Positions 12,098-63,767 are shown, counted from the stretch's first letter. The stretch: DNA of 64,000 bases from an uncultured Bacilli bacterium (GCA_963931065.1 OZ006970.1:139458-203457), one strand, 5' to 3'. Notes: generated by a model from the sequence alone, not told the origin. Made by a program: numbers and translations.

Positions 12098-12284
12098 TAC
12101 TATTATCCCTCCCTTCACGTTTTACTACAACTGATTATAACACTAAGAACATTTAAAGTACAACATTTTTTTGACATTTTTTACATTTTTTGTAACATTT
12201 CTCCTAAAAATAGACCAAAATTATAAAAAGTAAGCACTAATATAACATTAAGTAAGCTAAAACCCACTAATTTAGTAAATCTCT

Positions 12285-15869: not shown

Positions 15870-16232
15870 TTGTATAAAAAATCAACCTACTCTTAAAAGA
15901 AAGGTTGGTGAGAAAATGAAACATTACAAAATGTACAAGTCTATTATGAAGTATCTTACTGATACTAACATCAATAAGTGTTAAAGACGAAACTTTATTA
16001 CATGAATGAAAATAATGAATTAGTTAATATAGATACATCTACACTTAAGAAAGGATTATTAAAATGAAAACCAAGAAATAGAAAGATTATTAAATAGTGC
16101 CAAAAATTATTTTGGTAAAGATGAAAAATATACATTTTTAAATGTAAGAAGTGTGGCAAGTTAGATCCTGTTCCTGAATTTATTGTTAATGAACAGATTG
16201 GATTTTTAAAATTTATCGCTATGTTGTAGAAT

Positions 16233-17436: not shown

Positions 17437-17520
17437 CGAAAATTAATAAAAAATTATAAACATTGGCTATTAATTTTAAAATATAATAGTATAATATTAA
17501 ACAAGAAAGTTGGTGACTTT

Positions 17521-19096: not shown

Positions 19097-19612
19097 CCTT
19101 TTTCTCTACCTTAATCATATTTCTATTTCTTCTTCTATATCTAATACTTTTTATCAGTCAATTTAACTTTAAATTCATTTCTAACATCTTCAATCACATC
19201 TAGCATAAGTTTACTTCCATTAGATACATTTTACCAAATAAAAGAAAATATCACAACTCATGTCACCAAAATGTCAAAATGCTGCAAATGTGTCGTGATA
19301 AATATTTCCTAACAAACTTCCTAATAAATATTAATTAAATAATAAAATTATCATATAAACTATTTAACGAGTAAGGAATATTTTTTTTAGATTTTAGGTT
19401 TAAAATCCTATTATCATCCGCTCCAATTGATAACAAATAAAGGCAAGCTTTATTTGAATAAATATTATAATTAAATAATAAAAAATAGTTCTTTTTATGA
19501 TGTCTCCTAAATGGGGTTCACATCAGTTCATACTAAGTTCTTTTTTATTATCTCCCGTAACAAGCTTGGAAGTATAAGGAAAATATCTAAAAACTTTATT
19601 AAAGGATGAGCT

Positions 19613-31458: not shown

Positions 31459-31473
31459 AAACTTCTCCTTTCT

Positions 31474-31512
31474 AAAACACAAAAAAGAATAGAATAATCC
31501 TATTCTATTCTT
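31474..31512 (-). promoter_or_regulatory. conserved 12-bp-stem hairpin plus T-run (terminator/attenuator-like) in the leader of paralog 1
   Basis: aagaatagaata-ggat-tattctattctt followed by ttttgtgtttt on the minus strand, 15 nt before the RBS. A near-identical hairpin lies at 63684-63713 upstream of paralog 3. Confidence 0.5.
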
Positions 31513-31559
31513 ACATAACAAAAGAAAGTAATATTATTACTTAAATATTTATAAAGCTG

Positions 31560-31568
31560 CCCCCCCCC
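31560..31568 (-). repeat. G9 homopolymeric tract (C9 on plus strand) upstream of paralog 1
   Basis: The only long G/C homopolymers in this AT-rich window are this one and 63759-63767. Both sit in the same conserved module upstream of paralogous genes. Confidence 0.8.
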
Positions 31569-32485: not shown

Positions 32486-35400
32486 TTATATGTTTTTTAT
32501 TGACTTTTTATTGTTTTTATTTCTATAAGAAATATACATCAAAGTACCACCTATTATAATCAACAATCCACCTATTAAATAAATATATGTAGCATTACTT
32601 CCTGTATTTGGTACTTCTACTGGTTTTGAATTAAACATTACTTCACTTTGAATATCTCCTGTCTCTAAAACATTAAATTCAACTACTGATGTATTTAAGA
32701 TATATCCATCTGGTGCTATTGTTTCAGTAAGAGTATATTTACCAACTGGAAGCTTTTCTATATAATGTGGAGTATTACTTGATATCCATTCTTCTACAAT
32801 ATTACCATTACTATCTCTAATTACTAAATGAGCCCCTTCTACTTCTACACTATTGGCCATATCAAGTTTACTTATATTTATCTTTGTAAAGTCATTAACA
32901 TAATTTATTATACTTACATTACTATCATCAGTAACACTAAAGTATATAGGACTATTATTAACAATTACTCCATCTGGTGTATCTAATTGTTTTAATACAT
33001 AGTCACCCAACTCTAAAGTATCACTAATATAACCATCTTTAGTAGTCTCAAACTCATCAACTACTTCTCCTGTTCTAGTCTCTAAGCTATACTTATATCC
33101 TTCTTCTGCATCTACTACTAATTTTCTATCATTAACACTAACAGTAGTAACATCATTACTAATATTAACAGTCTGAACTTTACCTGTCTCTAATACTTCA
33201 AAAGTAATTTTAGAACCCGTTCCCACATAACCAGCTGGAGCCTCTAATTCTTCTAAAATATAAATACCAGCTGATAATCTAACTTGATAAGGCTCATTTG
33301 TACTAATAAACTCTATAGAATCAAAATCTCCATTTTCTTTAGTCAATCTCATTCGAGCCCCTGCTATATATTCTCCATTCCTAGCATCTATCTTACCTAA
33401 GTTTACTATTATTGGTTTATTTTCAATTTCAAGATTAATTTCTTCTGTAGTATCTTCAATAACTAATTCATGAAAACTCTCATCTAAAATATACCCATCA
33501 GGAGCTTGTTTTTCTTTTATATAATAAGTACCAACTTCTAAAGTAGATAAATCTATACTACTTACATCAGTTAAATCTATATCTCTAATATATTCTTTAT
33601 TATTATTGTATAAGCCTAATATTGATCCTAAAATAGGCTCTTTACTTTCACTATCTATCTTTGTAACAGTAACTTTTCTTTTTTTATTAGATAATTTATA
33701 TACAAAAGTACTATCACTATTAGCATTAAAATCTATTTCTAATACTTCACTAGTTCTAACATAACCATCAGGAGCTTTAACTTCTTCTAATTTATATTTC
33801 CCATAAGGAACATTTATTTCTGTTGGAACATTACTACTTGTAAATGTTTCAACTTCATCTCCATTACTATTGGTAAGTCTCAATGTTGCATCTGCAACAT
33901 ATTCTTCAGTATCAGCATCTACTTTTCCAATATTTATAAAAGATTTAACATTTTTCATTGTTACTTGAATACTTGTAGTATTTTCATCTATCGTAAAGCT
34001 TTCTCTTTCTTTATTTAAAGCATAACCACTAGGTGCCTCTATTTCTTCTACATAATATGTACCTGGACTTAATTTATCAAGAGTATATGCTTCTTTAATA
34101 GTAGTAAATGTCTCTATCTCATCACCAATACTATTAGTAACTCTTAACTTTGCTCCACTTAAAGGATTACCTTCTTCATCAACTTTATTTATAACTACTT
34201 GATTATTTGAATTATAGAATGTTACAGTCTTAGCTTCTTCCTCTTCACCAGTAATAGTAACAGGAACTTCACTATTACTAAGAGTATACCCATTTGGAGC
34301 TTCTACTTCTATTACTTTATATTCTCCTTTAACAAGCCCTTTTATACTATGTGCACTATCATCACTAGTCCACTCATCAATAATTTGATTATCACTTACT
34401 CTTACAAGTCTTAATCTTGCCCCACTAACAAACTTATTATCTAAATCTTTTTTCTCTATCAAAACTTCATTTTTTTCGTCTTTAAAATCAACAGTAACAC
34501 TAGTATTATTTTTATCAATAGTAAATTCTTTTTCTTTACTATTTATAAAATAACCATCAGGTGCACTTACTTCTACTACTTTATAAGTACCTTCTTGCAT
34601 TTTAGAAGTATCAACTTCTACATAATCATTAGTTGTTGTTATTGTATCAACTACTTCATTATTACTATTAACTATATTTAATACTGCTCCACTAACTACA
34701 TTACCTGTATCACTATCTATTTTTCTTATTCTTACATCATACTTTGAATTAGTAATCGTACTACTAATATTTAAATCACTATCACTTATTACTACATTAG
34801 TACTCTCTTTATCTATATAATATCCATTAGGAGCTTTTACCTCTTTTATCTCATACTCTCCTGGTAATAAGTTATCTATTACATAATCCTCAGTTGTAGT
34901 AATAAAGTTTGCTACACTCTTATTTGTTGCCTTTCTAATTACTTCTATACTAGCACCTTCCAAAGGAGTATTATCACTACTATCTACCTTTTTTATTGTT
35001 AAACTTCCACTTGGCATTTTAACACTAGCAGATACGGTCTTCTGTTTAGGTACACCTACAAGTGTACTAACAACTGACTGTTGCATTGTATCTACCATAT
35101 CACTAGGAGGATCATAACTGTAAGCAACATATTCTGTATAATTTACTATCACATTTATATTTACATTTATAGGATTATCTATCTTAGATAAATCTACTCT
35201 TAATTTAAAACCTTCTCCACTATTTATAGTATTAGTACCTACTACAACATCACTACTATTAAGAACTTCAACTGCACTATTATCTATACTAACAGCATAA
35301 CTATCATAACTAACATTACTATTTACAGTTATTAAATCAGTAATTAAATATCTATTATCACTACTTAATTTAAAATCACTAGTAGAAATATTAAAACTAG

Positions 35401-36016
35401 GATTAATTGTAACAGGATTATTTTTAGCATAAACTGCCCCTGTTATTAATGGTTCTATAACACTATAATAAGAACTGTTTTTAATAACTTTTTTTTGATT
35501 AGCAGTTAAAACTCCATCAATATCATCACTAACACCACTTACCCTATCTTGATAAAACCAAATTGCAACTTGTGTTAAATAATCATCATTTTTATCATTA
35601 CCAGTTAAACTTTTATTAGGATAAGCATTTTGTAAGATATAAACATAACCTGCATCAAGAGGAACTTCATTTTTAGTAATAGTTTTAGGACTATCATTCT
35701 TTGGCCAATCTTTATCTTTTTCTAGACAATAAACTGTATATCTATTACTACCATCATAAGCATAATATGGTACTAAAGATATAATTTCATCTTCACTTAA
35801 TCCCTCACTAAATAAAGTAACCCTATCAGTAAGAATATCTCCCATACCAGTCGTTAATGTATCAGGTAACTCCGTTGGAATAGCATATGAACTTGCTACT
35901 GTTTTACCTAAAAATATAATCATAATAATTGAAAAGAAGATACTAACTGTAACTTTCATCCAATCATTTTCACTTTTCTTAAATAAACTACCAATCTTAC
36001 CTAACATATTCATCAC
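32486..36016 (-). CDS. sortase-anchored surface adhesin: N-terminal thioester domain, multiple CnaB/SpaA-type Ig-like repeats, VPNTG sorting signal
   Basis: 1176 aa. N-terminal region has TVYCLEKD (Cys) and TQVAIWFYQD (Gln), the thioester-domain hallmarks. At least 7 repeats carry the GEYK(I/V)(V/I)EVxAP(N/D)GY motif. C-terminus is VPNTG plus hydrophobic stretch plus KNNKKS. Confidence 0.7.
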   Translation of the reverse strand: MMNMLGKIGSLFKKSENDWMKVTVSIFFSIIMIIFLGKTVASSYAIPTELPDTLTTGMGDILTDRVTLFSEGLSEDEIISLVPYYAYDGSNRYTVYCLEKDKDWPKNDSPKTITKNEVPLDAGYVYILQNAYPNKSLTGNDKNDDYLTQVAIWFYQDRVSGVSDDIDGVLTANQKKVIKNSSYYSVIEPLITGAVYAKNNPVTINPSFNISTSDFKLSSDNRYLITDLITVNSNVSYDSYAVSIDNSAVEVLNSSDVVVGTNTINSGEGFKLRVDLSKIDNPINVNINVIVNYTEYVAYSYDPPSDMVDTMQQSVVSTLVGVPKQKTVSASVKMPSGSLTIKKVDSSDNTPLEGASIEVIRKATNKSVANFITTTEDYVIDNLLPGEYEIKEVKAPNGYYIDKESTNVVISDSDLNISSTITNSKYDVRIRKIDSDTGNVVSGAVLNIVNSNNEVVDTITTTNDYVEVDTSKMQEGTYKVVEVSAPDGYFINSKEKEFTIDKNNTSVTVDFKDEKNEVLIEKKDLDNKFVSGARLRLVRVSDNQIIDEWTSDDSAHSIKGLVKGEYKVIEVEAPNGYTLSNSEVPVTITGEEEEAKTVTFYNSNNQVVINKVDEEGNPLSGAKLRVTNSIGDEIETFTTIKEAYTLDKLSPGTYYVEEIEAPSGYALNKERESFTIDENTTSIQVTMKNVKSFINIGKVDADTEEYVADATLRLTNSNGDEVETFTSSNVPTEINVPYGKYKLEEVKAPDGYVRTSEVLEIDFNANSDSTFVYKLSNKKRKVTVTKIDSESKEPILGSILGLYNNNKEYIRDIDLTDVSSIDLSTLEVGTYYIKEKQAPDGYILDESFHELVIEDTTEEINLEIENKPIIVNLGKIDARNGEYIAGARMRLTKENGDFDSIEFISTNEPYQVRLSAGIYILEELEAPAGYVGTGSKITFEVLETGKVQTVNISNDVTTVSVNDRKLVVDAEEGYKYSLETRTGEVVDEFETTKDGYISDTLELGDYVLKQLDTPDGVIVNNSPIYFSVTDDSNVSIINYVNDFTKINISKLDMANSVEVEGAHLVIRDSNGNIVEEWISSNTPHYIEKLPVGKYTLTETIAPDGYILNTSVVEFNVLETGDIQSEVMFNSKPVEVPNTGSNATYIYLIGGLLIIIGGTLMYISYRNKNNKKSIKNI

Positions 36017-38299: not shown

Positions 38300-40132
38300 T
38301 TATCCTAGTTCTATTATAAAAGGATCTAATTTAGTACCTGTACCTCCAGTTATTATGACATTTTCTTTAAGACTTAATGTTGGTTTTATTGCATTAGTTG
38401 TTGTTGGAGCGACATTAAAACTACTACCATATTGTCCAATACGGCGCATTACATACTGGTTATTCGGAGTTATAAGCCAATATGATGTATTATTTTCTTC
38501 TCTATCAAATTGGCCTGCCATTAACTCCCCTAATCTTAATAACCCTACTGTAGCATTTGTTGTATTTGAAGTTAATGTATTACCAGTTTCATCTGTGTAT
38601 TTAGCTAACTTATATGAAATGCCACCTTCACTTACACCTCCTAGATACCAAATTGTATCATCTACTATCATGGCACTATAATTATTGTCAACATAATTTG
38701 TTAAGTATTCACCATTAAGAAAACTTCCTATTGTATTTGTACTTGAAAAAGCTATATCATCACCAAAAGGAGTTACTTTAAATGTTTCAGAGTCTTTAAG
38801 GGAAATATCACTTGTTATTTTTGTTAAACTATTAGTCTCATGACTCACTATTCTATAAAGATTATTATTATCAGTTCCAAACTTAACATATTCTCCACTA
38901 TAACGAGTATTAAGTTTTACACCATTTAGATCTTTATCATTATCTCCTTCAAGGCGATAAGGATCATCTAATGTTCCATTGCCATCTACAATCTTAACAT
39001 TAGATTTTAAATTTATGGAAGGACGTATCCCTAAAGCATTTTTACCATCAAAACAATTACTATTTCCCAAATTATCTATTTCATTCATACTTATATCACT
39101 ATATGGTGTTAATATCCACCAATGAAGACCATTATTTAAATAACCATCACTATTGCTTGTTCCTTTAAAACTCTCTTGATATTCATATAAATTAAGTAAC
39201 CCTACTGTAGCAGTTACAATAGTACCACTATCACTAGGTCTTTTTACATTTCCTAAACTAGAAGAATCCGTTGTTGCATTCCATTTAGAATTTGTTACAA
39301 TAAAATTATCAACATCTCTTAAATTATATAAAAAACCATCTACTGTCATATCATTTAACCATTCTTCCATATAACTTCCTTCAAAAACTGTGTTATCCTT
39401 GGAATAAGGAATTGTACTTATATCCCATTGAGTTACTACTTTAGCTGTTTTTTCTTCATTATTAACACTAACTATCCTCCATAGTTTTCCACTATACCAA
39501 AGATAATTATTAGGAAATTGTCCTGTTGTAAAAGTATCTACTGTATCGTTATATATATTATCCTTACTGATATTACTAAGTGCAACTGTTCCTATTTCTC
39601 CTTCATGGGTTATTTCTTCTAATATGTGACCATTACTTGGTAAAGATAAATCATTATAATCTAACCCTACCTCTACACCTAAATTAATCGTTACACTACT
39701 TCCTGAATTATTTATTACTCTTATTACATAAGTATTACTTGAACCTACTGTTCCTGTTTTTTCTAAATTTATCCCTTTTTCGGTAGGTAAAACATTTGTT
39801 TCTTCTTTATTTATATATCCTATTTTAATGTTAGTTGGTAAATCATCCAAATAATAAAAATTGAATCTTGCTTTTCTATTATTAGGGTTACTTAACTCAA
39901 CTTTAAAATCTTTTACCGTATTTGAAGGAACAGTTAGAGTATTATTTTCTATATCATCAATAGTGAGATTATAAATTAAATTACCTGTTACAATCGTTAT
40001 AGCATTATTCTTTTCTTTTGTTACTGTAAACATAGCATAAGAGAAATATCCTCCTAATACTAATAAAATTACTATAATCATTACTATTATATACATTTTA
40101 GTAAAACTTACCTCTAAGAATAATTTTTTCAT
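38300..40132 (-). CDS. secreted/surface protein, paralog 2 of the tandem-repeat family
   Basis: N-terminal 60 aa nearly identical to paralog 1. Same internal repeat motifs (GLLNLYEYQES, HWWILTP, LGIRPSINLKSN, GGTGTKLDPF). Confidence 0.6.
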   Translation of the reverse strand: MKKLFLEVSFTKMYIIVMIIVILLVLGGYFSYAMFTVTKEKNNAITIVTGNLIYNLTIDDIENNTLTVPSNTVKDFKVELSNPNNRKARFNFYYLDDLPTNIKIGYINKEETNVLPTEKGINLEKTGTVGSSNTYVIRVINNSGSSVTINLGVEVGLDYNDLSLPSNGHILEEITHEGEIGTVALSNISKDNIYNDTVDTFTTGQFPNNYLWYSGKLWRIVSVNNEEKTAKVVTQWDISTIPYSKDNTVFEGSYMEEWLNDMTVDGFLYNLRDVDNFIVTNSKWNATTDSSSLGNVKRPSDSGTIVTATVGLLNLYEYQESFKGTSNSDGYLNNGLHWWILTPYSDISMNEIDNLGNSNCFDGKNALGIRPSINLKSNVKIVDGNGTLDDPYRLEGDNDKDLNGVKLNTRYSGEYVKFGTDNNNLYRIVSHETNSLTKITSDISLKDSETFKVTPFGDDIAFSSTNTIGSFLNGEYLTNYVDNNYSAMIVDDTIWYLGGVSEGGISYKLAKYTDETGNTLTSNTTNATVGLLRLGELMAGQFDREENNTSYWLITPNNQYVMRRIGQYGSSFNVAPTTTNAIKPTLSLKENVIITGGTGTKLDPFIIELG

Positions 40133-42562: not shown

Positions 42563-44062
42563 TTAAAGCTTTTTTAAAATGTTACATAGAGATTTTTTTA
42601 AAATGTTACATTTATTATATAATATACCTCTAGAGAAAGAGGTGTTTTATTTTGATAAAAAACAAGAAAAAAGCTTTAGAACTATTAAAGCAAAAAAATA
42701 ATGGTGAAATTAAAATCACCTTTAGTGAAATTTCTAATCAAACTGGTTATTCTAGAATGCATTTAAATCGTTTGATTAAAGAAGTTGAAAAAAAGGATAT
42801 TGATAACCTGTTAGTTCATGGACTCACAGGTAAAAATTCTAATAATTCCGCTCCCAGCCAAGAGATTGAATATATTAAGAATTTTAAAAATCAATATCCA
42901 GTTATTAGTATATCACAGTTTATGGATATTTATCATGAAGATGTTATTTGGAATAAAGAAAAGCAAGCCGATGTAAAAAAATATAATCTTAAAGTTAGAA
43001 GTAAATCTTTCTTTCAACAATTATACAAAAAAGAAGGATGGAAAAGTCCAGTTAAACACAAAAGTTTTAAAAATGATTCTAATCAACATCCTTTAAGAGA
43101 TCCTTCTCCACGAAGAGGAATACTTATTATGACAGATGGTACTCCACACGACTGGTTTGGTAATGGAAAACTATTTTCATTGCATATGACTTTAGATGAT
43201 GCTACTGATGAAATACTTTCAGGATGGTTTATGCCTACAGAATGTCAATTAGGTTATTGTTATGCTTTTAAAATAATGTTTGAAAAATATGGACTACCAC
43301 AATCAATATATTCAGATAGAACAACAATTTTATGGAATCAAAAAGATGGTGAATTAACTCAAGTTGGAAGAATGTTAGATGAACTCGGTATTGAATTAAT
43401 ATACGCAAATACACCACAAGCTAAAGGTAAAATTGAAAACAAAAACAAAGTTGTACAAAACAGATTGTTAAACGATATTAAACGATTTAATATTAAAACA
43501 TATGATGAATTAAATAAATGGTTTAACGATTATTACATTGATTATCTAAATAAAAAGTTCTCCTATCCACCACTAGAAGAAGAGACAGATTTTATTCCTT
43601 TAGATAATACAGACTTATCTACAATAATGTGCATTAAAGTAGATAGAAAAATATTAAATGGCAACATGATATCCATTAATAATAATTATTATATCCCTAT
43701 AAATAGTGATGGCAGTGACTTTGTATTTTATAAAGGAACAACTGTTGAAGTTTGGCAAGATGTATTTACTAATGATATTAGAATTTTTAAAAACAATAAA
43801 ATATATAATACAAGAAAAATTGAAGGACACAGGGTTGATATGAAGAAGAAAGAACAAAAAATAATTGATGACCAAAAACAATTAGAAGTATTATTGAGAG
43901 AAAGAGATGAAAGATTAAAAGCAAGGGCGAAACATAGTTGAGTTCATCTTGACCCTTGCTTTTTAACTTTCATAAATTATAATTATTCTTCAAACAAAGT
44001 TCGCCTTTGTTTGTTATCAATTTAATAATTTAAAAATGTAACATTTCTAAAAAATCTTAACA
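42563..44062 (+). mobile_element. IS element (IS1202/ISNCY-like) flanked by 18-bp direct repeats
   Basis: Direct repeat actacttattttaaactt at 42545-42562 and 44063-44080. Imperfect terminal IRs of about 28 bp (gttaaagcttttttaaaatgttacat... vs RC gttaagattttttagaaatgttacat...). Single 429-aa DDE transposase. Long target duplications are characteristic of the IS1202 group. Confidence 0.7.
42652..43941 (+). CDS. DDE transposase (rve/integrase-core type; IS1202/ISNCY-like)
   Basis: N-terminal HTH (ISNQTGYSRMHLNRLIKE), then catalytic core with MTDGT...HMTLDDATDE...YSDRTT. 429 aa. Confidence 0.65.
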   Translation: MIKNKKKALELLKQKNNGEIKITFSEISNQTGYSRMHLNRLIKEVEKKDIDNLLVHGLTGKNSNNSAPSQEIEYIKNFKNQYPVISISQFMDIYHEDVIWNKEKQADVKKYNLKVRSKSFFQQLYKKEGWKSPVKHKSFKNDSNQHPLRDPSPRRGILIMTDGTPHDWFGNGKLFSLHMTLDDATDEILSGWFMPTECQLGYCYAFKIMFEKYGLPQSIYSDRTTILWNQKDGELTQVGRMLDELGIELIYANTPQAKGKIENKNKVVQNRLLNDIKRFNIKTYDELNKWFNDYYIDYLNKKFSYPPLEEETDFIPLDNTDLSTIMCIKVDRKILNGNMISINNNYYIPINSDGSDFVFYKGTTVEVWQDVFTNDIRIFKNNKIYNTRKIEGHRVDMKKKEQKIIDDQKQLEVLLRERDERLKARAKHS

Positions 44063-50732: not shown

Positions 50733-51284
50733 TTATATAAATAAATAATCTGGCTTTTTATAAGGCTCATCATAACTTTTATCTTTCATATATTTATCTA
50801 TTAATACTATCTCATCTTGTTCTAAACTCTTAGGAACATCTATAACTCTTTGATTTCTAGAACCTCTATAATAAATATTTAAACTTTTCTCTTCTAAGAT
50901 AAATTTACCATCTACTAAGACATCTACTTCACTAAGTAATTTCTTCATCTTAGGATTTTTAAGCATTGCTTCATAAGTATACCCTGTATAACACCATACA
51001 TTAAGTCCCATAGAATGAGCTGCTTTGCTAATTTCATAACATGCTTCACTCTGGCATACTGGATCTCCTCCAGATAAGGTAATACCATCTTGATTTTTAA
51101 TAGTCTTTAACTCATCTATTACTTCACTAACATCAAACAAAGCACCACCATCAAAGTCATGAGTACCAGGATTTTGACACCCTGGACATGCATGAGGACA
51201 CCCTTGTGTCCAAATAACAGTTCTTACCCCTTCTCCATCTACAATAGAATCAGGTTGTAATGATGCCGCTAGTCTTATTTTCAT
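50733..51284 (-). CDS. nrdG: anaerobic ribonucleoside-triphosphate reductase activating protein (copy 1)
   Basis: Radical-SAM CPHACPGC cluster motif; 183 aa. Confidence 0.85.
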   Translation of the reverse strand: MKIRLAASLQPDSIVDGEGVRTVIWTQGCPHACPGCQNPGTHDFDGGALFDVSEVIDELKTIKNQDGITLSGGDPVCQSEACYEISKAAHSMGLNVWCYTGYTYEAMLKNPKMKKLLSEVDVLVDGKFILEEKSLNIYYRGSRNQRVIDVPKSLEQDEIVLIDKYMKDKSYDEPYKKPDYLFI

Positions 51285-51482: not shown

Positions 51483-53813
51483 TTATTCACAACAATTATT
51501 ATCTAATGAAGTTATTACTTCCATTGGAACCCCTTCAAATTCATGACGTCCACATTTAGGACAAACATCATTAATCACTCCAACATAACCACAAACAGGA
51601 TCTCTATCAACTGGATGGTTAATCGCACCATAACCAATACCTGCTTCTTTCATAACGCGAATTACTTTCTCAAATGCCTCAACATTAGAAGCAGCATCAC
51701 CATCTAACTCAATATAAGAAATATGTCCTCCATTAGTAAGTTCATGGAAAGGTGCCTCTTTTTCAATTTTATTAGTAATGCTTATATTATAATAAACTGG
51801 TACATGGAATGAATTTGTATAATACTCTCTATCAGTAACACCTTTAATCTTTCCATATATCGCTCTATCAATACCAGTAAATCTACCACTTAACCCTTCT
51901 GCAGGTGTAGCAAGACAAGTAAAGTTTAAGTTATATTTACGAGAATACTCATCACAACGTTTTCTCATAAATTTAATAATTTCTAAACCTAACTTTTCAC
52001 TCTCTTCACTTTCACCATGATGTTTACCAGTTAAAGCTTTTAAACATTCTGCAAGTCCAATAAATCCTGTAGATAAAGTACCATGTTTCCATACTTTTCT
52101 AAGTCTATCAGTTGGTTTTAACTTCTCACCATTAGTCCAAATACCTTGTCCAAGTAAGAATGGAAAGTTATAACTATGTTTACTGCATTGTACTTCAAAT
52201 CTTTCAAGTAATTGATCTTTAACCATATCCATAATATCGCTAAGTTCTTTATAGAACCCATCCATATCTGCCTTATCTCTTTCTTTTAAAGCGATACCAT
52301 ATTTAATGCCCAATCTTGGTAAGTTAATAGTAGTAAAAGATAAATTACCACGACCAGTTACTATCTCATTATCTGGACTAGTAACATCTCCTATTACTCT
52401 TGTTCTACATCCCATATAAGCAATTTCTGTATTGAAATCTCCCTCTTTATAATATTTCTTATTGAATGGAGCATCTATAAATGCAAAGTTAGGGAAAAGT
52501 CTTTTAGCAGATACTTTACAAGCAAGTTTAAATAAATCATAGTTAGGCTCTCCTGGATTATAATTAACTCCTTCTTTTACTTTAAATATTGATACTGGAA
52601 ATATCGGAGTTTCTCCTTTTCCAAGACCTCTATCTAAAGAAAGTAAGAAATTTTTAATAACCATTCTACCTTCTGGAGTTATATCTGTTCCAAAGTTAAC
52701 TGATGAAAATGGAACTTGTGCTCCTGCTCTAGAATGCATTGTATTTAAATTATGAATAAATGCTTCCATCGCTTGCCCAGTCGCTCTATCAGTTTTTTGC
52801 ATGGCCTTAAGATAACTCTTCTCAAATATTTCATGAACTCTACTAGAGCCTTTCTTATAATCACTAAATTCTTTAATATCGAATTCAATTGATTCTTGTT
52901 TATCTATTTCTCTAACAATTCTATCTATATTAATACCTGGAATAAATCCCTCTAAATCAAGAAAATCATAGATTGTTTGTTTAAATTGTTTTTTAAATGT
53001 TTTAAGTACACCTGGTGCAAGATAATAGTCTAAAGCAGGTATTGCTTGTCCACCATGTTGATCATTTTGATTAGCTTGAATAACGATACAAGCAAGTGAT
53101 GCATAAGTTGAAATATCTTGAGGTGGTCTAACATATCCATGTCCTGTATCAAAACCATTTTTAAATAGTCTTGCTAAATCTATCTGACAACAAGTAGTAG
53201 TACCCATCGCTAAGAAGTCCATATCATGAATATGTATAGTACCATTATCATGAGCTTCAGCATATTCTTTTCTCATTAAGTATGCTTTTGCAAACTCTTT
53301 AGATACTGTCGCTCCATATTGTAACATCGTACCCATTGGACTATTTCCATCAATATTAGCATTCTCTCTTTTAGCATCTTCTTCATTAGCAGACTTAAGC
53401 CCAAGGTTTTCTAATGATTTTAAGAACTTATGAGTTTTATTATCTCCGAAGAAAGATTCTCTAGATTGATTTCTTCTTTCTCTATATTCAGAAAATGATT
53501 TATAAACATCATCATAACCCTTACTAGACAATTCACTTTCTATATAATCTTGAATTTCCTCTATTTTAAAGCGATTATTTTTCTCTTCTGCATCTTTCTT
53601 TATTTTCTTTAAAACTGCACTATATACTTTTTGAATATCAGAAGAGTTATATTTCTTTTCTTTTTCACTCTCATCATCATCTACTTCAACACTATCAAAA
53701 CCTTTTTTTATGGCTAAAGCTATTTTCGCTCCATCAAAGTCTACTTTTTTACCATTTCTTTTAATTACTGTAACCCCTTCTAATTGGTCATTTAATTCAT
53801 TTACTCCTGTCAT
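51483..53813 (-). CDS. nrdD: anaerobic ribonucleoside-triphosphate reductase catalytic subunit (copy 1), ending after the zinc ribbon without the glycyl-radical segment
   Basis: 776 aa with N-terminal ATP-cone and class III RNR core. Ends ...CGYVGVINDVCPKCGRHEFEGVPMEVITSLDNNCCE (zinc-ribbon cysteines) with no RxxGY...GK...R segment. Confidence 0.85.
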   Translation of the reverse strand: MTGVNELNDQLEGVTVIKRNGKKVDFDGAKIALAIKKGFDSVEVDDDESEKEKKYNSSDIQKVYSAVLKKIKKDAEEKNNRFKIEEIQDYIESELSSKGYDDVYKSFSEYRERRNQSRESFFGDNKTHKFLKSLENLGLKSANEEDAKRENANIDGNSPMGTMLQYGATVSKEFAKAYLMRKEYAEAHDNGTIHIHDMDFLAMGTTTCCQIDLARLFKNGFDTGHGYVRPPQDISTYASLACIVIQANQNDQHGGQAIPALDYYLAPGVLKTFKKQFKQTIYDFLDLEGFIPGINIDRIVREIDKQESIEFDIKEFSDYKKGSSRVHEIFEKSYLKAMQKTDRATGQAMEAFIHNLNTMHSRAGAQVPFSSVNFGTDITPEGRMVIKNFLLSLDRGLGKGETPIFPVSIFKVKEGVNYNPGEPNYDLFKLACKVSAKRLFPNFAFIDAPFNKKYYKEGDFNTEIAYMGCRTRVIGDVTSPDNEIVTGRGNLSFTTINLPRLGIKYGIALKERDKADMDGFYKELSDIMDMVKDQLLERFEVQCSKHSYNFPFLLGQGIWTNGEKLKPTDRLRKVWKHGTLSTGFIGLAECLKALTGKHHGESEESEKLGLEIIKFMRKRCDEYSRKYNLNFTCLATPAEGLSGRFTGIDRAIYGKIKGVTDREYYTNSFHVPVYYNISITNKIEKEAPFHELTNGGHISYIELDGDAASNVEAFEKVIRVMKEAGIGYGAINHPVDRDPVCGYVGVINDVCPKCGRHEFEGVPMEVITSLDNNCCE

Positions 53814-54241: not shown

Positions 54242-54835
54242 TTATTTTTTTCTTTTTAAAATTTTTTCTTGTTCTTCTATATAACAAATGCCACATAAAG
54301 ATTCATATATAACCTCACTATTATCATCAATAACAATACTATCTCCATCAAAAGTAAATTTACCATCAACTTTCCTAGCATTAAAGCGTGCTTTCTTTCC
54401 ACACCGACAAATTGTTGGCATTTCTTCTAAAGCATCAGCAAGTTCTAACAAACGTATTGAACCCTCAAATCCATTAGATTTAAAATCAGTTCTAAGTCCA
54501 AAAGCAATAACAGGAATATCCATTATTTTAGAGATATAAAATAGCTCATCTACTTGGTTACTTTTTAAAAATTGTGCTTCATCAACTAAAATACAATCAA
54601 TAGATATAATATTATCCCCTAATATTGAAATAATACTATCATTATCACCAATTAAATAATCAACTTTTCTTTCAAGACCAATACGAGAAACTATTTTTTC
54701 ATCACCTTTAGTATCAACACTAGGCTTTAAGAGTATCACTTTCTTACCTTTTTCTTCATAATTATAAGCAGTCTGTAAAAGAATAGTAGACTTTCCTGCA
54801 TTCATCGCTCCATATCTAAAATGAAATTTAGCCAT
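54242..54835 (-). CDS. tdk: thymidine kinase
   Basis: GAMNAGKST P-loop and C-terminal zinc ribbon (CRCGKKA...CGICY); 197 aa. Confidence 0.85.
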   Translation of the reverse strand: MAKFHFRYGAMNAGKSTILLQTAYNYEEKGKKVILLKPSVDTKGDEKIVSRIGLERKVDYLIGDNDSIISILGDNIISIDCILVDEAQFLKSNQVDELFYISKIMDIPVIAFGLRTDFKSNGFEGSIRLLELADALEEMPTICRCGKKARFNARKVDGKFTFDGDSIVIDDNSEVIYESLCGICYIEEQEKILKRKK

Positions 54836-54837: not shown

Positions 54838-55305
54838 TTATTTATCCTTCTTATCAGTAGAACCAAATCCTCCGGTTCTTATTCCCTCTGCATTATCATT
54901 ATCAACAATTAAATATTTTTGAAACATTACTTGACCAATAACATCACCCTTTTTAACTTCAATATCATGATCACTACAATTAAAATATGCAAAGTAAAAA
55001 TGTCCATCATTAGATTCATTTCCATAATAATCATGATCAATCAATCCCACACTATTAGCAAGTATAAAACCTTTCTTAGGACCACTACTTCTATTAAGCA
55101 AAAGATAACATTCATCTTCCATACAATATGCTTTTAATCCTGTAGGAATTAATGTTGGTTTAATCCCTGGATAATATTTAGGAATAACTATATCCTCTGC
55201 TGCTGCCACATCATATGCCGCTGCATATTTTGTCTTTCTAACTGGTAAATTAATCCCTTTATCTTCATATCCTTTTACTACTTCAAATCCTCTTTTTCTA
55301 ATCAT
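54838..55305 (-). CDS. dut: dUTP diphosphatase (trimeric dUTPase)
   Basis: Motifs RSSGPKKG, GLIDHDY, GGFGSTD; 155 aa. Confidence 0.75.
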   Translation of the reverse strand: MIRKRGFEVVKGYEDKGINLPVRKTKYAAAYDVAAAEDIVIPKYYPGIKPTLIPTGLKAYCMEDECYLLLNRSSGPKKGFILANSVGLIDHDYYGNESNDGHFYFAYFNCSDHDIEVKKGDVIGQVMFQKYLIVDNDNAEGIRTGGFGSTDKKDK

Positions 55306-56293: not shown

Positions 56294-56730
56294 TGCGAAC
56301 CTCCCATATTTTTCTTTATAAACTCTCTTGTATAAAACTGATATTTATCACTATGAGAAAGTTTATAAGCTTTTCTATAACCTTTATCTTTTTTATTTTC
56401 TAACTTTTTATTAAGTTCATCTAAACTAAGAAAAACACTTGTTCCAAAAGATGTCTCTAAAACATTTAAGTATTCCATATCTACATCTTTATCATAGCAT
56501 CTTTCTCCTAACATTCCTACAATACCATTATTAACAGAATATAATTGTAATATTTTCTGTTCTTCTAAATTACTAAAAACTTCAGAATAAGACTTCAACA
56601 ATTCTATCTCATCACCATCTAAACAAATAGGATAAACTCCATCTTCTGTAGTCTTTAAATACCCTCCAGAAATATTTCCATACTCACCACTAATTCCTAA
56701 GGTATAACCCTGTTCTAATTTCTTAATCAT
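56290..56730 (-). CDS. hypothetical protein
   Basis: 146 aa. Overlapping start/stop with flanking genes (ATGA couplings) implies co-translation with nrdG2. Confidence 0.3.
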   Translation of the reverse strand: MIKKLEQGYTLGISGEYGNISGGYLKTTEDGVYPICLDGDEIELLKSYSEVFSNLEEQKILQLYSVNNGIVGMLGERCYDKDVDMEYLNVLETSFGTSVFLSLDELNKKLENKKDKGYRKAYKLSHSDKYQFYTREFIKKNMGGSQ

Positions 56731-57275
56731 ACTAGTTCCTCCTCTAATATTTTACTATTATCTATATATAATACCTTCTTATTCTTTTTTAAACTATTAG
56801 GAACATCAATAATACACTGATTACTACTACCTACATAATGTATTTTCTCTGAAGCTAGTTTCAAAACAAATCTCCCATCAAGTAATACATCTATATTATT
56901 TAAAATAGTATCTAAATCTTTATCAGTCTTCATCTGTTCTAACAACTCTTCCCATGTATAACCTGTATAAAGCCAAATAGTTTTATCTCTAAACTTCTCT
57001 CTAATCTCTTTAACTAATTTAGATATTTCTTCTCTATTTCCAAAAAACAAAGGATCCCCCCCTGATAAAGTTATACCACTACACCATTCTTTCTCTAATT
57101 CATCGAAAATTTCTTTTTTAGCATCTTCATCAAAGACTAAACCATCATTAGGATCCCAAGTCATAGCATTTTGACAAGCATGGCAATGATGAGAACAGCC
57201 TGATACCCACAAAACAACTCTAAGTCCTTCACCATTAAGCATATCTGCCTTTGTTATATTATGATATCTCATCAC
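56727..57275 (-). CDS. nrdG: anaerobic ribonucleoside-triphosphate reductase activating protein (copy 2)
   Basis: CSHHCHAC radical-SAM motif; 182 aa; overlaps the nrdD2 stop. Confidence 0.8.
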   Translation of the reverse strand: MMRYHNITKADMLNGEGLRVVLWVSGCSHHCHACQNAMTWDPNDGLVFDEDAKKEIFDELEKEWCSGITLSGGDPLFFGNREEISKLVKEIREKFRDKTIWLYTGYTWEELLEQMKTDKDLDTILNNIDVLLDGRFVLKLASEKIHYVGSSNQCIIDVPNSLKKNKKVLYIDNSKILEEELV

Positions 57276-59410
57276 ATAGACTTCCTTTCAGATATTTCTA
57301 CCATCTTTGCATTACCAAGCATCGTATCACCATGAACTCTTGAGTAAGAAAGGTATCCATTCATTCTATCTATCTTCGTCAAATCACTACTTCCACACTT
57401 AGGACAAGTATCCATATCTAATTCTTCATGTCCACAGTTATTACAGTAAGCAAGTGAAAGATTAACTCCTTCATAAAAACCTTTATCCATCGCTCTTTCT
57501 ACATAAGTAAGCATTGCCTTAGTATTATAACTCAAATTATAACGAACATACTGTATTCTTCCCCCTTTAAATAGTTCCCAAAATCTATCTTCCAAGTCTT
57601 GTTTTTCTATACCACTAATATCTTCCCAAACTCCACAATGGAAGCTGTTAGAAACGTATTCACGAGAACTAACTCCAGGAATAATACCATATTTCTTACG
57701 GAATTGTTTTATTTGAAGTCCACATAAACTCTCAGCAGGTGTTCCATATATTGCATAAAGAATATTATCTTCTTTTTTAAACTCAGTAGTCTTCTTATTA
57801 ATATATTTCATAACTTCAAGAGCAAAAGATCCATCTTCAACAATACTCTTACCATTATATAGAACTTGTAATTCATTTAAAGCCGTAATACCAAAAGATG
57901 CTGTAGAGCTTTTCAAAATAGGTTCAATAGATTCTTCTGGTTTCAAATTACCTCCGTAAAAACCACCTTGACAGTAAGCTAGAGGATTAGTAGAAGCTTT
58001 ACGTTTAGATAGATATCGATAAGTACGAATATGAATCCTACGTATCATCTCTAAGTAATAATCAAGTACCTCATAAAAGTCTTTTTGTTCTTCCCTTGCC
58101 TTAGCAAGTATCATAGGTAAATGCAATGATATCGCCCCTATATTAAATCTACCAATAAAGACAGGTTTATCTTTTTCATCAGCTGCATCCATTCCCCCAC
58201 GTTCATACCAAGGAGAAAGAAATGCACGGCATCCCATAGGACTAACAATTCTCTTATATTTCTTATACATCTCTCCCACATAACCTTCTCCTGATAATGA
58301 TAAATAATCAGGATACATTGTCTTCTCACTACATCTAATAGCAGTAAGAAAACTATCTCTTAACTCTCCCCCTTCACCATGTACTTTCTTATCATATAAG
58401 AACACAAGTTTAGGAAATACAGTAGGTCGCTTAAACCCTTTCTTACCTTGACCTTTTCTATGTACATCTAATATAGTCTTAGTAATCATAACCGCAAACT
58501 TATCTTTATCTACACCAAAAGTAAGAGTAACAAAAGGATAATCCCCTCTACTAGATGAAACAGTATTTAATTTATATTCAAATCCCTGATAACCCTGCTC
58601 ACACTCTCTTACTGTCTTCTTCCAAGCATAATCCTCCGCTTCAGAAACATATTCTTTTCCTTTAATATTTAAATACTCTTTATAATACATATCATAACTT
58701 TTCTTAGCATATTTCTTTAATACAGTATCAATCTCAGGAAGAGTAAAACCACCATACTGCATTGCAGTAGTATTAATAGTAACATCTCCTACTACATTAA
58801 AAGCAGTCTGTAATGTTTTAGGTTCTGTATACCAAATATTACTCATCTCAAAACCATCTTTTAAGACATTACCAATATCAAACAAACAACAATTCATCGT
58901 ATCACGTCTTGCACTCATATCATGAATATAGATATAACCATCTTTACAAGCTTCTATTTCAGCACTAGTTAAAAAGAATTTCTTATATAACTCTTTATTA
59001 AGACTATTATATATTAAACATCTTTGTGTCGTAACCAAAGCACTATCCATATTAGCACAATCTTTATCACCTATATAAGTAATAACCTGGCTCTTTTTAT
59101 AAACTTCATCTAATATATGAATAATATCTTTCTTATAATCTCTATACTCTCTATAACTCTTTGCAACCAAAGGATTAATAGTCTCTAAAGCTACTTCACA
59201 ACAACTATGTACTTGTTCAACAGTAGGATTACTTGTCTGTGTTTCTAAAAGTTCAACTACTTTATTAACAATTTTCTCCATCGCTTCATCAGTTAAATCA
59301 ACCATGACTCTCTCAGCACTACTTCTAACTGCTTTCCTAACTCGTTCAGAATCAAACTTTTCCAAATTACCATTTCTTTTTACAATCATAATATCCTTCA
59401 TGTACATCAA
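57272..59410 (-). CDS. nrdD: anaerobic ribonucleoside-triphosphate reductase catalytic subunit (copy 2, intact with fused glycyl-radical C-terminus)
   Basis: 712 aa ending CNNCGHEELDMDTCPKCGSSDLTKIDRMNGYLSYSRVHGDTMLGNAKMVEISERK, i.e. zinc ribbon plus glycyl-radical motif. Confidence 0.85.
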   Translation of the reverse strand: MMYMKDIMIVKRNGNLEKFDSERVRKAVRSSAERVMVDLTDEAMEKIVNKVVELLETQTSNPTVEQVHSCCEVALETINPLVAKSYREYRDYKKDIIHILDEVYKKSQVITYIGDKDCANMDSALVTTQRCLIYNSLNKELYKKFFLTSAEIEACKDGYIYIHDMSARRDTMNCCLFDIGNVLKDGFEMSNIWYTEPKTLQTAFNVVGDVTINTTAMQYGGFTLPEIDTVLKKYAKKSYDMYYKEYLNIKGKEYVSEAEDYAWKKTVRECEQGYQGFEYKLNTVSSSRGDYPFVTLTFGVDKDKFAVMITKTILDVHRKGQGKKGFKRPTVFPKLVFLYDKKVHGEGGELRDSFLTAIRCSEKTMYPDYLSLSGEGYVGEMYKKYKRIVSPMGCRAFLSPWYERGGMDAADEKDKPVFIGRFNIGAISLHLPMILAKAREEQKDFYEVLDYYLEMIRRIHIRTYRYLSKRKASTNPLAYCQGGFYGGNLKPEESIEPILKSSTASFGITALNELQVLYNGKSIVEDGSFALEVMKYINKKTTEFKKEDNILYAIYGTPAESLCGLQIKQFRKKYGIIPGVSSREYVSNSFHCGVWEDISGIEKQDLEDRFWELFKGGRIQYVRYNLSYNTKAMLTYVERAMDKGFYEGVNLSLAYCNNCGHEELDMDTCPKCGSSDLTKIDRMNGYLSYSRVHGDTMLGNAKMVEISERKSM

Positions 59411-60164: not shown

Positions 60165-60590
60165 TTATTGAAGTGCTAATGTAAACGGTTTCTCCTTAGT
60201 TCCTAGGCCTCCAGTTATTATTACATTAGATTTTAGATTTACAGAAGGCCGGACGCCGAGCGCGTACGAAGGAGAGTAGTTGTTCGCGCCACCACCGATG
60301 TTGACGAAACGCACGCGAGACGTACTATATGGTGTTAAGGTCCAATAAGTTGTATTATTACTATATCTATCAAATTGCCCTGACATTAATTCTCCAAAAC
60401 GAAGTAAGCCTACTTTAGCTTCTGTAGTTGAACTAGTTAAACTACTCATAACAGTATCTGTATATTTGGCTAATTTATATGATGTACCATCTCCTACAGT
60501 ACCTAAATACCACGTTGTACTATCTTCTATCATATCACTATATATACTGTCAACATAACTTGTTAAATATTCTCCATTTAAGAATGTTCC
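60165..60590 (-). pseudogene. 3' fragment of surface-protein paralog 3 (second repeat domain), separated from its 5' part by an IS insertion
   Basis: Reading frame is open from 60590 (AIGTFLNGEYLTSYVDSIYSDMIEDSTTWYLG...) to the stop at 60165. Aligns to the C-terminal 140 aa of paralog 1. Confidence 0.65.
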
Positions 60591-60595
60591 TATAG

Positions 60596-62092
60596 CTTAT
60601 AACCGGACAGTTTTTAAAATGATATAAAAATGACCTAGAGATTATCTAAGTCATTTTGTCTCTTAAAATTGAAATAAACAACCTTTTTTGATATTCTTAT
60701 ATAGAAAACAAAATAAAGAATAGAGGTTGTTTATGAATAAAGTATATAATACACAAGAAGAAATCGCAAGTAAAATGAAAGAAATTTTATTAAAAAGTAA
60801 TCCTTATATCAGAAAGACACAACTTAAAATTATTCCTTATATATCTTTAGGTATGATTTTATCTGAATCTTCTGTTGCAAGTGACATCGCAAAACATCTT
60901 AAAAATGATTTTTCTTTAGTTCAATTTGATTCTGTTATCAGAAGAATTAAACGTTTCTTTAAAAATAAATTATTTAATCCTTATGAATTTTATGATCAAA
61001 TTATTAAATATGTTATCTCTAATTATAAAACTAAACATTCTGACAAGACTGTTCATATTACTTTTGATCATATGTTTTCTCATGATAATTATACTGTTTT
61101 TATGATTTCTATGAGAGTTGGTAAACAAGGTATTCCTTTATGGTTTAGATGTTTTGAAAACAAAGATGATTCTGATGCTTTTAGTGAAGAACTGATTAAA
61201 GAAGGTATTTCTTATGTTTCTAATCTTTTTGATTCTTCCTATAAATTAATATTTCTTGCCGATAGATGGTTTAAATCCATTTCTTTGATGCAACACATTG
61301 ATTCATTAGGACATACTTTCTGTATTAGACTAAAAAATAACATTAAAGTATTTGTTTATGATAAAAAAGAGGGTCATAGGATTTGGAAATTTATTGAAGA
61401 TATAAAACCTCTTATGTATCACTCTAGAATTTTTAGAGATGTTTTACTTACTAATTACTCTTATAAAACTAACATAGTTATTAGTAAAAAAGATAGTGTT
61501 GATGAGCCTTGGATTATTGTCACTAACGGAGATCCTAAAAGAGCCATTAAAGATTATGGTTACCGTTTTGGTTCTATTGAAACTTTATTTAAAAATCAAA
61601 AATCTAACGGGTTTTATATAGAGTCCGTTGTTAAAGCAGGATTAGATTATTTTACCTCAATGTATTCTATAACCTGTTTTACAATTCTTTTCTTAACTAT
61701 ATTAGGTGCAGATTATTCTAAAAACACAAAATGTTATAAAAAAGTAAAAATAACTACTCATAAACACTTTATTCAAAATGGAGTTAGAATAAAGAAAAGA
61801 GTAATGTCTTTATTTAACACAGGACTTACTCTATTTCATCTTGCCTTTAACTCCTCGAGATACATTAGACTACCCTTTTCTTTTATTCTTTATGACATCT
61901 AAAAAAATTGAAAAAATTAAAGTTCTTTTTGTCGTGTATTAATTTATGTAAAAAGTGTAACTTTTAGTATCAAAAGTTACACTTTTTCTTCATTTAATCA
62001 TCTTTGCTACCAATTCATATACTGTTGGTCGTACTTTTATATCTATTTTCCCTTTGTTTTCCAACACTTTAATTAGAACTGTCCGTTGCTAA
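60596..62092 (+). mobile_element. IS4-family-like insertion sequence (about 1.5 kb) with 10-bp target site duplication
   Basis: Duplicated target gttcctatag at 60586-60595 and 62093-62102. Imperfect terminal IRs (cttataaccggacag / ctgtccgttgctaa). Rejoining the flanks restores ...SNTIGTFLNGEY..., the intact paralog sequence. Confidence 0.7.
60727..61902 (+). CDS. DDE transposase (IS4-like, DDE_Tnp_1 type)
   Basis: 391 aa with IFLADRWF and a C-terminal Y-x2-R-x4-E-x6-K-like signature (YGYRFGSIETLFKNQK). Confidence 0.55.
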   Translation: MFMNKVYNTQEEIASKMKEILLKSNPYIRKTQLKIIPYISLGMILSESSVASDIAKHLKNDFSLVQFDSVIRRIKRFFKNKLFNPYEFYDQIIKYVISNYKTKHSDKTVHITFDHMFSHDNYTVFMISMRVGKQGIPLWFRCFENKDDSDAFSEELIKEGISYVSNLFDSSYKLIFLADRWFKSISLMQHIDSLGHTFCIRLKNNIKVFVYDKKEGHRIWKFIEDIKPLMYHSRIFRDVLLTNYSYKTNIVISKKDSVDEPWIIVTNGDPKRAIKDYGYRFGSIETLFKNQKSNGFYIESVVKAGLDYFTSMYSITCFTILFLTILGADYSKNTKCYKKVKITTHKHFIQNGVRIKKRVMSLFNTGLTLFHLAFNSSRYIRLPFSFILYDI

Positions 62093-63570
62093 GTTCCTAT
62101 AGTATTACTACTTGAAAAACTAGTATTACTTCCAAAAGTGCTTTCTATATGAGATCCACTATTTTTTAAAGGAACAGCACTTACTATCTTTGTTCCTGTA
62201 CCATTTTCGTGACTTACTATCCTATATAGATTATTTTCATCATTACCAAATTTTATGTATTCTCCACTATATCTACTTGAAAGAAGTGTTACTGAAAGAT
62301 TAGTATCATTATCTCCGTTTAATCTATATGGATCATCTATTGTTCCATCACCGTCTACAATACGAACGCTAGATTTTAGATTTATTGATGGCCGGACGCC
62401 GTGCGCGCCAGACGGACTATAGTAGTCCACGATACCCATGTCGTTCACGCGACGCACGACCGACGCACCGTATGGTGTTAAAGTCCACCAAGTAAGTCCA
62501 TTATTTAAATAACCATTTGTTTCTCCATTATTACTAGACTGATATTCATACATATTTAAAAGTCCTACTGCATCTGTTACTATTGTACCACTATCGCTAG
62601 GTCTTGTTATACTTCCTAAACTAGTTGCATCTAATGTGGCATTCCATTTAGCATCTGTTACAATGAAATTCTCATAATCTCTCAAATTACCTAAGAAACC
62701 ATCTACTGTTGTATCATTTAACCAATCTTCCATATAACTTCCTTCAAAATTAGTTTGTTTCACAGGATTGTATATAGTTGCACTTATATTCCATTGTGTC
62801 ACTAACTTAGTAGATTTCGCTTCATTATTTACAGACACTGCTCTCCATAACTTACCACTATACCATACATAGTTATTAGGGTCAGTGCCAGTTATAAATG
62901 TATCTATATCATCATCATATTGGTTTTCTTTTGGTATATTATTAAGCAAAACAGTTGATACTTCCTCTGCTACTCTATCTTGTCCATATACATTTATCTT
63001 TACACTAAATTGTAAGTTACCTCCATCGCCTTGTGGATTATATTCTTCTGTTACATACATTCTAAGTCTATATCTATTTGTCTCACTAGAATTCATGCTA
63101 CTTGTATATAAACTCATCTCTCCTGATGGTCTTCCTGTGTAATCATTAGCAGTTGCCTCTTCGTTATATACTTCTGGTGTCATTAATTCTTCTTCACCAT
63201 CATCTGTTAATCTTGTTAGATATAATTTTATATTTGAACCATCTATCTTTCTATCTGATGTTGTTACATCTTTCGCGCTTATCTCATAGTTAATATTAAC
63301 ATCTCCTGCTATCTTACTACTTACTGTAAAATCAAAATACTCTCCATCTGTTAATCTTGTCTTACCTGTTTTATCTGTTGTTGGTAAAGCCCCTGTTAAA
63401 CTTATTGTATTATCTGTCTCTTCATAAGACATTGTTATTGATCCTGTTGTTATTGAGTTTAGTTTAGTACCTGTAGCACTATAATTAAATACAGCCCAAC
63501 TTACCCCTATTACTGCTATTACCATTACCATTAACAATACTATTATTATGATATTTTCCTTTTTCTTCAT
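62089..63570 (-). pseudogene. 5' fragment of surface-protein paralog 3 (signal anchor plus first repeat domain), truncated by the IS insertion
   Basis: 493 aa ending ...SSSNTIGT* where the stop is created at the IS junction. Shares the N-terminal architecture and repeat motifs (GLLNMYEYQSS, WWTLTPY, GVRPSINLKSS) with paralogs 1 and 2. Confidence 0.65.
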
Positions 63571-63758: not shown

Positions 63759-63767
63759 CCCCCCCCC
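63759..63767 (-). repeat. G9 homopolymeric tract (C9 on plus strand) upstream of paralog 3
   Basis: Second G9 tract, embedded in a module (63684-63770) that is about 85% identical to 31481-31568. Confidence 0.8.

Follow-up and report, generated by a model that had tools for sequence, protein, structure and literature searches.

A short GC-rich patch within an AT-rich gene of an uncultured Bacilli bacterium is very probably a variable repeat (VR) of a diversity-generating retroelement (DGR), one of two such repeats in a gene for a 632-aa surface protein with two tandem DUF6273 domains. The gene, to which we refer as paralog 3, lies in the stretch of 64,000 nucleotides analyzed here (the window), and its two patches occupy equivalent sites, VR2 in the C-terminal loop of DUF6273 domain 2 and VR1 in the corresponding loop of domain 1 (Table 1). 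The window has a GC content of 27.2%, with 80-nt windows averaging 0.272 (sd 0.058), and GC exceeds 0.50 in such windows at two places only, namely, 60216-60356 (peak 0.625) and 62329-62511 (peak 0.66). With both patches excluded, the highest GC content of any 79-nt segment is 0.49, and the minor peaks correspond to a tRNA-Gly and to the Cys-rich motif of nrdG. Outside the patches, paralog 3 has a GC content of 0.31 and a coding-strand A content of 0.40 (40%), against 13-14% A in the two VRs.

The initial annotation of this stretch had singled out the patch in domain 2, and much of what it said of that patch stands. The sequence quoted there is present in the window, and the proposed span, 60241-60326, largely holds, the GC-rich run beginning at 60247/60248. 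Counted over 18 housekeeping ORFs of the window, the codons that had been called rare are indeed so (CGC 2%, CGG 0%, GTG 4%, GTC 5%, as well as GGC 4%, TCG 0% and CTC 0.4%), with AAC accounting for 8%. In paralog 3, as described, the patch stays within the hypervariable loop of the second repeat domain, between the motifs WTLTPY and GVRPSVNLKS; it is 33-38% identical to the loops of paralogs 1 and 2, both of them AT-rich as had been stated, with flanks that are 67-73% identical. Patches of this kind are not common in unrelated genes, a circumstance that the annotation had allowed for, the two places with GC above 0.50 being the only ones. What the annotation did not mention is the twin patch in domain 1 and the splitting of the gene by an insertion sequence (IS).

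Table 1. Variable repeats, their host gene and the paralogs used for comparison, with positions counted from the first nucleotide of the window
Feature	Coordinates	Strand	Properties	Product or remark
VR2	60248-60326	minus	79 nt, GC 0.62, coding-strand A 0.14	encodes STSRVRFVNIGGGANNYSPSYALGVR
VR1, twin patch	62391-62469	minus	GC 0.66, A 0.13	encodes GASVVRRVNDMGIVDYYSPSGAHGVR
GC-only 3' end of VR2	60247-60258	minus	CGGCGTCCGGCC	similar to the IMH (initiation of mutagenic homing) boundary seen in known DGRs
GC-only 3' end of VR1	62390-62401	minus	CGGCGTCCGGCC	exact 12-mer match
Paralog 3, 5' part	62093-63570	minus	ORF 62089-63570	gene start 63570
Paralog 3, 3' part	60165-60595	minus	remainder of DUF6273 domain 2, VR2, stop codon	
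IS4-family insertion sequence	60596-62092	plus	1,497 bp	transposase ORF 60727-61902
Paralog 1	29635-31521	minus	same architecture, loops AT-rich (GC 0.27-0.29)	comparator without VR
Paralog 2	38300-40132	minus	same architecture, loops AT-rich (GC 0.28-0.37)	second comparator

Both patches show the pattern expected of DGR variable repeats. They are 70-73% identical to each other and differ at seven NNC codons (CGC/GTC, TTC/CGC, ATC/GAC, GGC/ATC, AAC/GAC, AAC/TAC and TAC/GGC), in each case within positions 1 and 2, with other differences falling at four-fold degenerate third positions. Each ends in the same GC-only 12-mer, which occurs exactly twice in the window, once per VR end (chance expectation 0.02), and which corresponds to the IMH-type boundary of known DGRs (PMC5758913). 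Without its last base, this element, then reading CGGCGTCCGGC, is also the 3' end of the template repeat (TR) and the VRs of a related locus, L002; beyond it, the L002 TR continues with ATTTCC and the VRs with C(T/A)TC, that is, TR and VR diverge immediately. When both segments are compared with paralogs 1 and 2, the segments themselves are 27-38% identical and their flanks 67-78%, which argues for replacement of a block rather than for divergence in place.

Templates that fit this pattern were found in related genomes. The scaffold of the two VRs, written as a pattern with N wherever they differ, was scanned against species-representative genomes and matched three contigs, from uncultured low-GC Bacilli and 'Tenericutes' MAGs, whereas a scan of IMG/VR with the same pattern and a scan of JGI metagenomes with two TR-type patterns gave 0 matches each. 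At locus L001, a two-domain homolog with a VR in each domain is followed by a TR, orfX (115 aa), an Avd-like ORF (114 aa) and a reverse transcriptase (RT, 304 aa) that matches RVT_1 (3e-17) and contains the motifs IGNYTSQ and YMDD, in line with the (I/L/V)GxxxSQ and YxDD signatures of DGR-clade RTs. The TR of this locus is non-coding and located ~180 bp downstream of VR2, and its variable codons are AAC or AAT. Locus L002 consists of VR1, VR2 and a TR, after which the contig ends. Three further loci reached via RT homologs, L006, L007 and L009, are chromosomal and comprise a target, a TR, a 111-aa ORF, a 114-aa ORF and an RT, the RT being present in L006-L009. The 114-aa Avd-like ORF of the relatives matches the whole profiles of bAvd (E=1.6e-3) and DivGenRetAVD (E=1.2e-3), in both cases below the curated cut-offs. 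Among the 26 codons of the relatives' TRs, 10-12 are AAC or AAT; these TRs have 48-52% GC and 26-34% A, and the genomes of the relatives with VR patches are equally AT-rich (27-29% GC).

VR2 and the TRs of L001 and L002 can be aligned codon by codon. Compared with the L002 TR, VR1 is mismatched at 16 of the 26 adenines and at 3 of the 53 other positions (Fisher p=1.5e-7), and VR2 at 16/26 and 5/53, respectively (Fisher p=2e-6). The differences between the two VRs are likewise concentrated at the positions of L002-type TR adenines (18/26 vs 8/53 elsewhere; p=4.8e-6). The non-adenine mismatches to the L002 TR fall at sites where the TRs of the relatives, or the VRs written from them, differ, for instance at codons 8 (GTC/GTG) and 14 (GTG/GCG/GAG) of the 79 nt, and the true template would be a close variant of the L002 type and not the TR of L002 itself. 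We infer from these alignments that both VRs of the window were written by an L002-type TR, which was not found in the ~118 kb of the contig covered. What counts against the assignment of the patches as DGR VRs is that their link to a template runs through the TR of another MAG, with 3-5 non-adenine mismatches.

A further 12-mer, AATCTAAAATCT, which comprises N-L-K-S codons, lies directly 3' of the VRs (60230-60241 and 62373-62384, minus strand). It follows nearly every VR examined, mostly in two copies per target gene, and is present also in paralog 1 and at loci L001-L014. Its Leu codon is always CTA, which represents 6% of the Leu codons in this genome. Such invariance points to a constraint at the nucleotide level, and AATCTAAAATCT is possibly a target-recognition element for homing.

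In a DGR, a system that rewrites the binding loop of a protein, RT and Avd copy a TR-containing RNA, misincorporating opposite template adenines, and the cDNA replaces the VR up to the GC-rich 3' boundary. Such a process could also account for the GC richness of the patches. The TR would have to avoid adenine wherever variation is unwanted, AAC codons marking the sites meant to vary, hence the A-free scaffold codons (GTG, GTC, CGT, GGT, GCG, CCG, TCG and TCT), and AAC at the variable sites combined with an A-free scaffold would result in the GC content of ~52% seen in the relatives' TRs. Mutagenic copying would then have swapped ~60% of the adenines in the VRs of the window, bringing GC to 62-66% and A to ~13%, and through repeated overwriting from the TR, for as long as the DGR was active, the VR would escape the AT mutational pressure of the genome. 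The compositional anomaly, striking as it is, can be explained by a known mechanism, and no new one is implied. The initial annotation had described the segment as locally foreign and had proposed looking for a DGR template repeat among other possible sources. This lead pointed in the right direction, although the templates came from related genomes, the window itself containing neither a template copy nor a silent cassette; as for foreignness, the composition is atypical, but it is what a DGR template imposes rather than the trace of a foreign donor or of a chimeric assembly.

Indeed, a fragment horizontally acquired or gene-converted from a GC-rich donor, which would match the locally atypical composition and the sharp boundaries, is very improbable. 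This type of patch occupies the loops of both domains and those of thousands of homologs in genomes of 27-29% GC, the nearest relatives of the patches are non-coding TRs of AT-rich genomes from which they differ at adenines, and the reading frame and the scaffold residues are exactly preserved. The abrupt change in composition is also all that would speak for an assembly chimera or a sequencing artefact, the probability of which we consider close to nil: the exact 493-aa and 122-aa products are found on 7 and 8 contigs, respectively, from several samples, including the 1.52-Mb contig of an ENA metagenome assembly from which the window derives (ERZ21564551, s19725.ctg025008c), and homologous patches are present in many independent MAGs. 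Finally, one might invoke local selection for a GC-rich nucleic acid structure, be it a hairpin in mRNA or DNA or a site of translational pausing, with no retrohoming involved, since stable folding of such a tract within an AT-rich gene is conceivable. When the DNA was folded over 97 nt starting at the VR 3' end and compared with shuffles, for the VRs of the window and for the relatives having a TR, no significant BPP-1-like hairpin emerged (z -0.2 to +1.3); the end of each VR and its immediate 3' flank fold no better than shuffled sequence. Selection for structure, moreover, leaves the NNC codon pattern, the adenine depletion and the AAC-rich non-coding copies of the relatives unexplained, and is highly unlikely to have produced the patches.

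The relatives also offer a view of the process at work. Their cognate TRs and VRs are mismatched at 8-17 TR adenines and at 0-6 non-A positions. Between loci L006 and L007, the RT proteins do not differ and the DNA is 97.5% identical; within the target gene, the two loci differ at 33 of 158 bases of the VRs (21%) versus 59 of 1678 (3.5%) elsewhere. Of these 33 differences, 29 coincide with TR adenines. They represent diversification in the relatives since the two loci diverged. In the TR of L007 (9021-9099), a non-adenine change, CCG to CAG, reappears in VR1 (8127-8205) but not in VR2; as a natural tag, this change records a recent transfer of information from the TR to VR1, and it shows that the two VRs of L007 are updated independently. 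More than 4,400 homologs of the target were found, thousands of them full-length and some annotated as Candidatus Onthousia, a Bacilli genus from MAGs of the chicken gut. The best 120 of the homologs are 73-85% identical, and in their alignment the column entropy averages 0.72 bits, rising to ~3 bits at ~11 positions per VR; these positions are exactly the AAC-templated codons.

With regard to the genome at hand, we lean towards the view that its VRs are orphaned relics that are no longer diversified, because a TR and an RT are missing from the vicinity, the covered parts of the contig contain no detected RT, and the gene is split by an IS. An adenine-tolerant sliding scan for a TR on both strands of the window recovered the two VRs only, and tblastn with the relatives' RT, Avd and orfX gave no match in the window and the adjoining 10 kb, nor in L004, L010 and L011 (in total ~118 kb of the 1.52-Mb contig). 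Among the RT and orfX homologs listed, which comprise cluster representatives and some of the cluster members, none is located on the 1,519,355-bp contig, although an RT elsewhere in the genome may have escaped such lists. Given that RT, Avd and TR are all missing from the window, we classify the feature, on its signature and homology, as a DGR VR rather than as a complete DGR.

Alternatively, the same system might still be active, with the VRs served from a distance by an intact TR-Avd-RT cassette at another site of the 1.52-Mb chromosome; diversification would then have lasted until the recent IS insertion or would continue to this day. Several observations lend this scenario some weight. 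DGRs are known to act on targets >100 kb away (PMC5758913), at least 3 VR-bearing paralogs, including P0176 (L010) and P0202 (L011), are spread over 1.4 Mb of the genome, and the inspected part amounts to ~8% of the contig. Furthermore, the syntenic ortholog locus L014, which is ~90% identical and contains an intact 632-aa gene, has different VR types and no local TR or RT, and the locus may therefore always have depended on a remote template in trans, a possibility that also weighs against the orphan status of the VRs. Conversely, apart from the lack of RT and orfX homologs noted above, the sole TR seen on the contig, that of L010, is devoid of protein genes and has apparently drifted, and 6-8 contigs of public assemblies encode the VR-bearing proteins in identical form, although these assemblies possibly all represent one strain. 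On balance, an active cassette is possible but doubtful. No variants from the window's own strain were found in the protein clusters of the VR-bearing products, and L011 and L012 are 99.8% identical and thus uninformative as a comparison of independent strains.

At L010 (same 1.52-Mb contig, ~68.5 kb), a TR (12018-12100) and a conserved spacer RNA region (12100-12336) lie behind P0176, orfX, Avd and RT are gone, and an opposite-strand DedA/VTT gene abuts the TR/spacer region. This is a cassette reduced to its TR. The TR differs from the adjacent VRs at three non-adenine positions at which both VRs agree with each other, suggesting that it drifted after the last homing event. As a template of the VRs in the window, it was rejected (13-19 non-adenine mismatches and a 3-nt indel), and a GC peak at 8805-8968 of L010, considered as an additional VR or TR, turned out to be the Gly-rich tail of a DUF2207 protein. 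Cassette decay is seen once more in another lineage of the clade, at locus L003: behind a target gene with two VRs, there is a truncated TR stub, CAGTACGTCTAACGTGCATAATGTTAGCC (~255-290, minus strand), which no RT follows.

It is also conceivable, although improbable, that the several VR-bearing paralogs of this genome and its at least one TR with the spacer region form an RT-less, helper-dependent set of targets and templates, being rewritten only when RT and Avd are supplied in trans, the source of which could be a mobile element or another cassette. If so, the different VR types at the orthologous locus in relatives would reflect successive overwriting by different TRs.

Paralog 3 is currently interrupted. 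Its 5' part encodes a signal/transmembrane segment, an N-terminal beta domain, DUF6273 domain 1 and the beginning of domain 2. The IS transposase matches Pfam DDE_Tnp_1 and the NCBIfam IS4 family (E=2.5e-24), and the element has imperfect terminal inverted repeats and is flanked by a perfect 10-bp target-site duplication, GTTCCTATAG, at 60586-60595 and 62093-62102. Deletion of 60596-62102, i.e., of the IS together with one copy of the duplication, restores a single ORF of 632 aa, the length of the intact syntenic ortholog in L014. Because the duplication is perfect and both halves of the gene are still open, the insertion looks recent, and thus says little on how long the VRs have been static.

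The domain assignment of the fragments is borderline: Pfam DUF6273 (PF19789) scores 22.6 bits with the 5' part (E=1.1e-4) and 19.9 bits with the other fragment, against a cut-off of 23.5 bits, with the matches covering profile positions 103-172 of 172. The cut-off is passed by paralog 1 (25 bits) and by the relatives (~40-42 bits). DUF6273 is a C-type-lectin-like DGR target domain of gut phages and Faecalibacterium prophages, in which the VR is C-terminal (PMC11792537, PMC10743442). Because the AlphaFold2 models of the whole N-terminal fragment and of domain 1 with a mixed domain alignment are both of low confidence (mean pLDDT of 44.7 and 35.3, respectively), the C-type-lectin fold is taken here from the literature (PMC10743442). 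A profile search of PDB sequences gave no match.

DGRs as such, DUF6273 as a target, remote targets and a rare gene with multiple VRs are already known, and it is against this background that the present system should be viewed. The DUF6273 DGRs of Faecalibacterium prophages and gut phages ('tentaclins'; PMC11792537, PMC10743442) have the same target domain, with the VR at its C-terminal end, and operate by the same logic, an AAC-rich TR with A-to-N changes in the VR. By contrast, the system described here is chromosomal and located among housekeeping genes, and the IMG/VR scan was empty; the target protein consists of an N-terminal signal/transmembrane segment, a beta domain and two tandem DUF6273 domains with a VR in each; and the window lacks template and enzyme. 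The DGR prototype is that of Bordetella phage BPP-1 (Mtd, TR, Avd, bRT). The features in common with BPP-1 are adenine-specific mutagenesis, the location of the VR at the end of a ligand-binding domain, a GC-only 3' boundary element common to VR and TR and, in the relatives, an Avd-like accessory gene upstream of the RT. A hairpin or cruciform just downstream of the IMH has been shown for BPP-1 but is not universal in DGRs, and none is detectable just downstream of the VRs here. The relatives further differ from BPP-1 in having an additional conserved orfX of 111-115 aa between TR and Avd, in that one TR serves two VRs in one gene, and in that the host is cellular, not a phage.

Closer in this last respect are TvpA of Treponema denticola and other cellular DGRs with remote targets (PMC5758913), which likewise diversify surface proteins and likewise have target genes far from the cassette, with several paralogous targets per genome. 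In Treponema, however, an intact RT and a TR in the same genome match all targets (Wu et al. 2018, PMC5758913), whereas no cognate TR or RT was found for the VRs of the window in the ~118 kb of the contig covered. The same survey (Wu et al. 2018, PMC5758913) includes one CLec1 gene with three VRs, the only CLec1 target for which it reports multiple VRs. That gene resembles paralog 3 in having more than one VR per target gene, with internal VRs that appear mutagenized, but in the present family, with its thousands of homologs, two VRs per gene are the rule.

Our findings point to a large and apparently undescribed family of chromosomal DGRs in gut Bacilli that have small genomes and are related to Candidatus Onthousia. 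Here, the two repeats of the tandem DUF6273 domains are served by a single template, and the cassettes appear to be lost piecemeal, as in the case of the TR stub of L003 and of the TR without protein genes in L010. In practical terms, short A-poor, GC-rich islands at the C-terminal loop of the domain can serve as a marker of DGR VRs in very AT-rich genomes, even where the template and the RT lie elsewhere or have been lost.

The neighborhood of the gene is that of an ordinary Gram-positive chromosome, with genes for IleRS, Tex, a Mur ligase, a P-type ATPase and nrdD/nrdG, and several IS elements. Among the latter are one of the ISL3 family (10467-11914; inverted ends of 57 nt) and one of the IS1595 family (16203-17452; inverted ends of 42 nt). 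Two nrdD/nrdG pairs, encoding anaerobic ribonucleotide reductase and its activase, are located within a stretch of 9 kb (57272-59410 and 56727-57275; 51483-53813 and 50733-51284), with genes for a dUTPase (54838-55305) and a thymidine kinase (54242-54835) between them; this region looks like a duplicated or imported island of nucleotide metabolism. Between paralogs 1 and 2 lies a gene for an LPXTG-anchored adhesin of 1,176 aa (32486-36016, minus strand) that combines a thioester domain with nine SpaA-type repeats, the period of which is ~264 nt in the DNA. A 48-nt inverted-repeat pair (19425-19472 and 43975-44022), 85% complementary over a distance of 24.5 kb, brackets the same two paralogs.

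Some of the paralogs also share sequence features upstream of the coding region. A G9 tract is located ~190 nt upstream of paralogs 3 (63759-63767, minus strand) and 1 (31560-31568, minus strand) as well as of P0176 (L010, 9840-9848); the one upstream of paralog 3 is inside a small ORF of 29 aa. In all three paralogs (1, 3 and P0176), the tract is followed by a conserved near-palindrome, AAGTAATAATATTACTT, and upstream of paralog 3 a hairpin is seen after the near-palindrome. Similar G tracts occur at a different gene in the relatives, G8 in L006 (19514-19521) and G9 in L007 (19446-19454) and L008 (9493-9501). The variation in tract length suggests slipped-strand phase variation of this surface-protein family.
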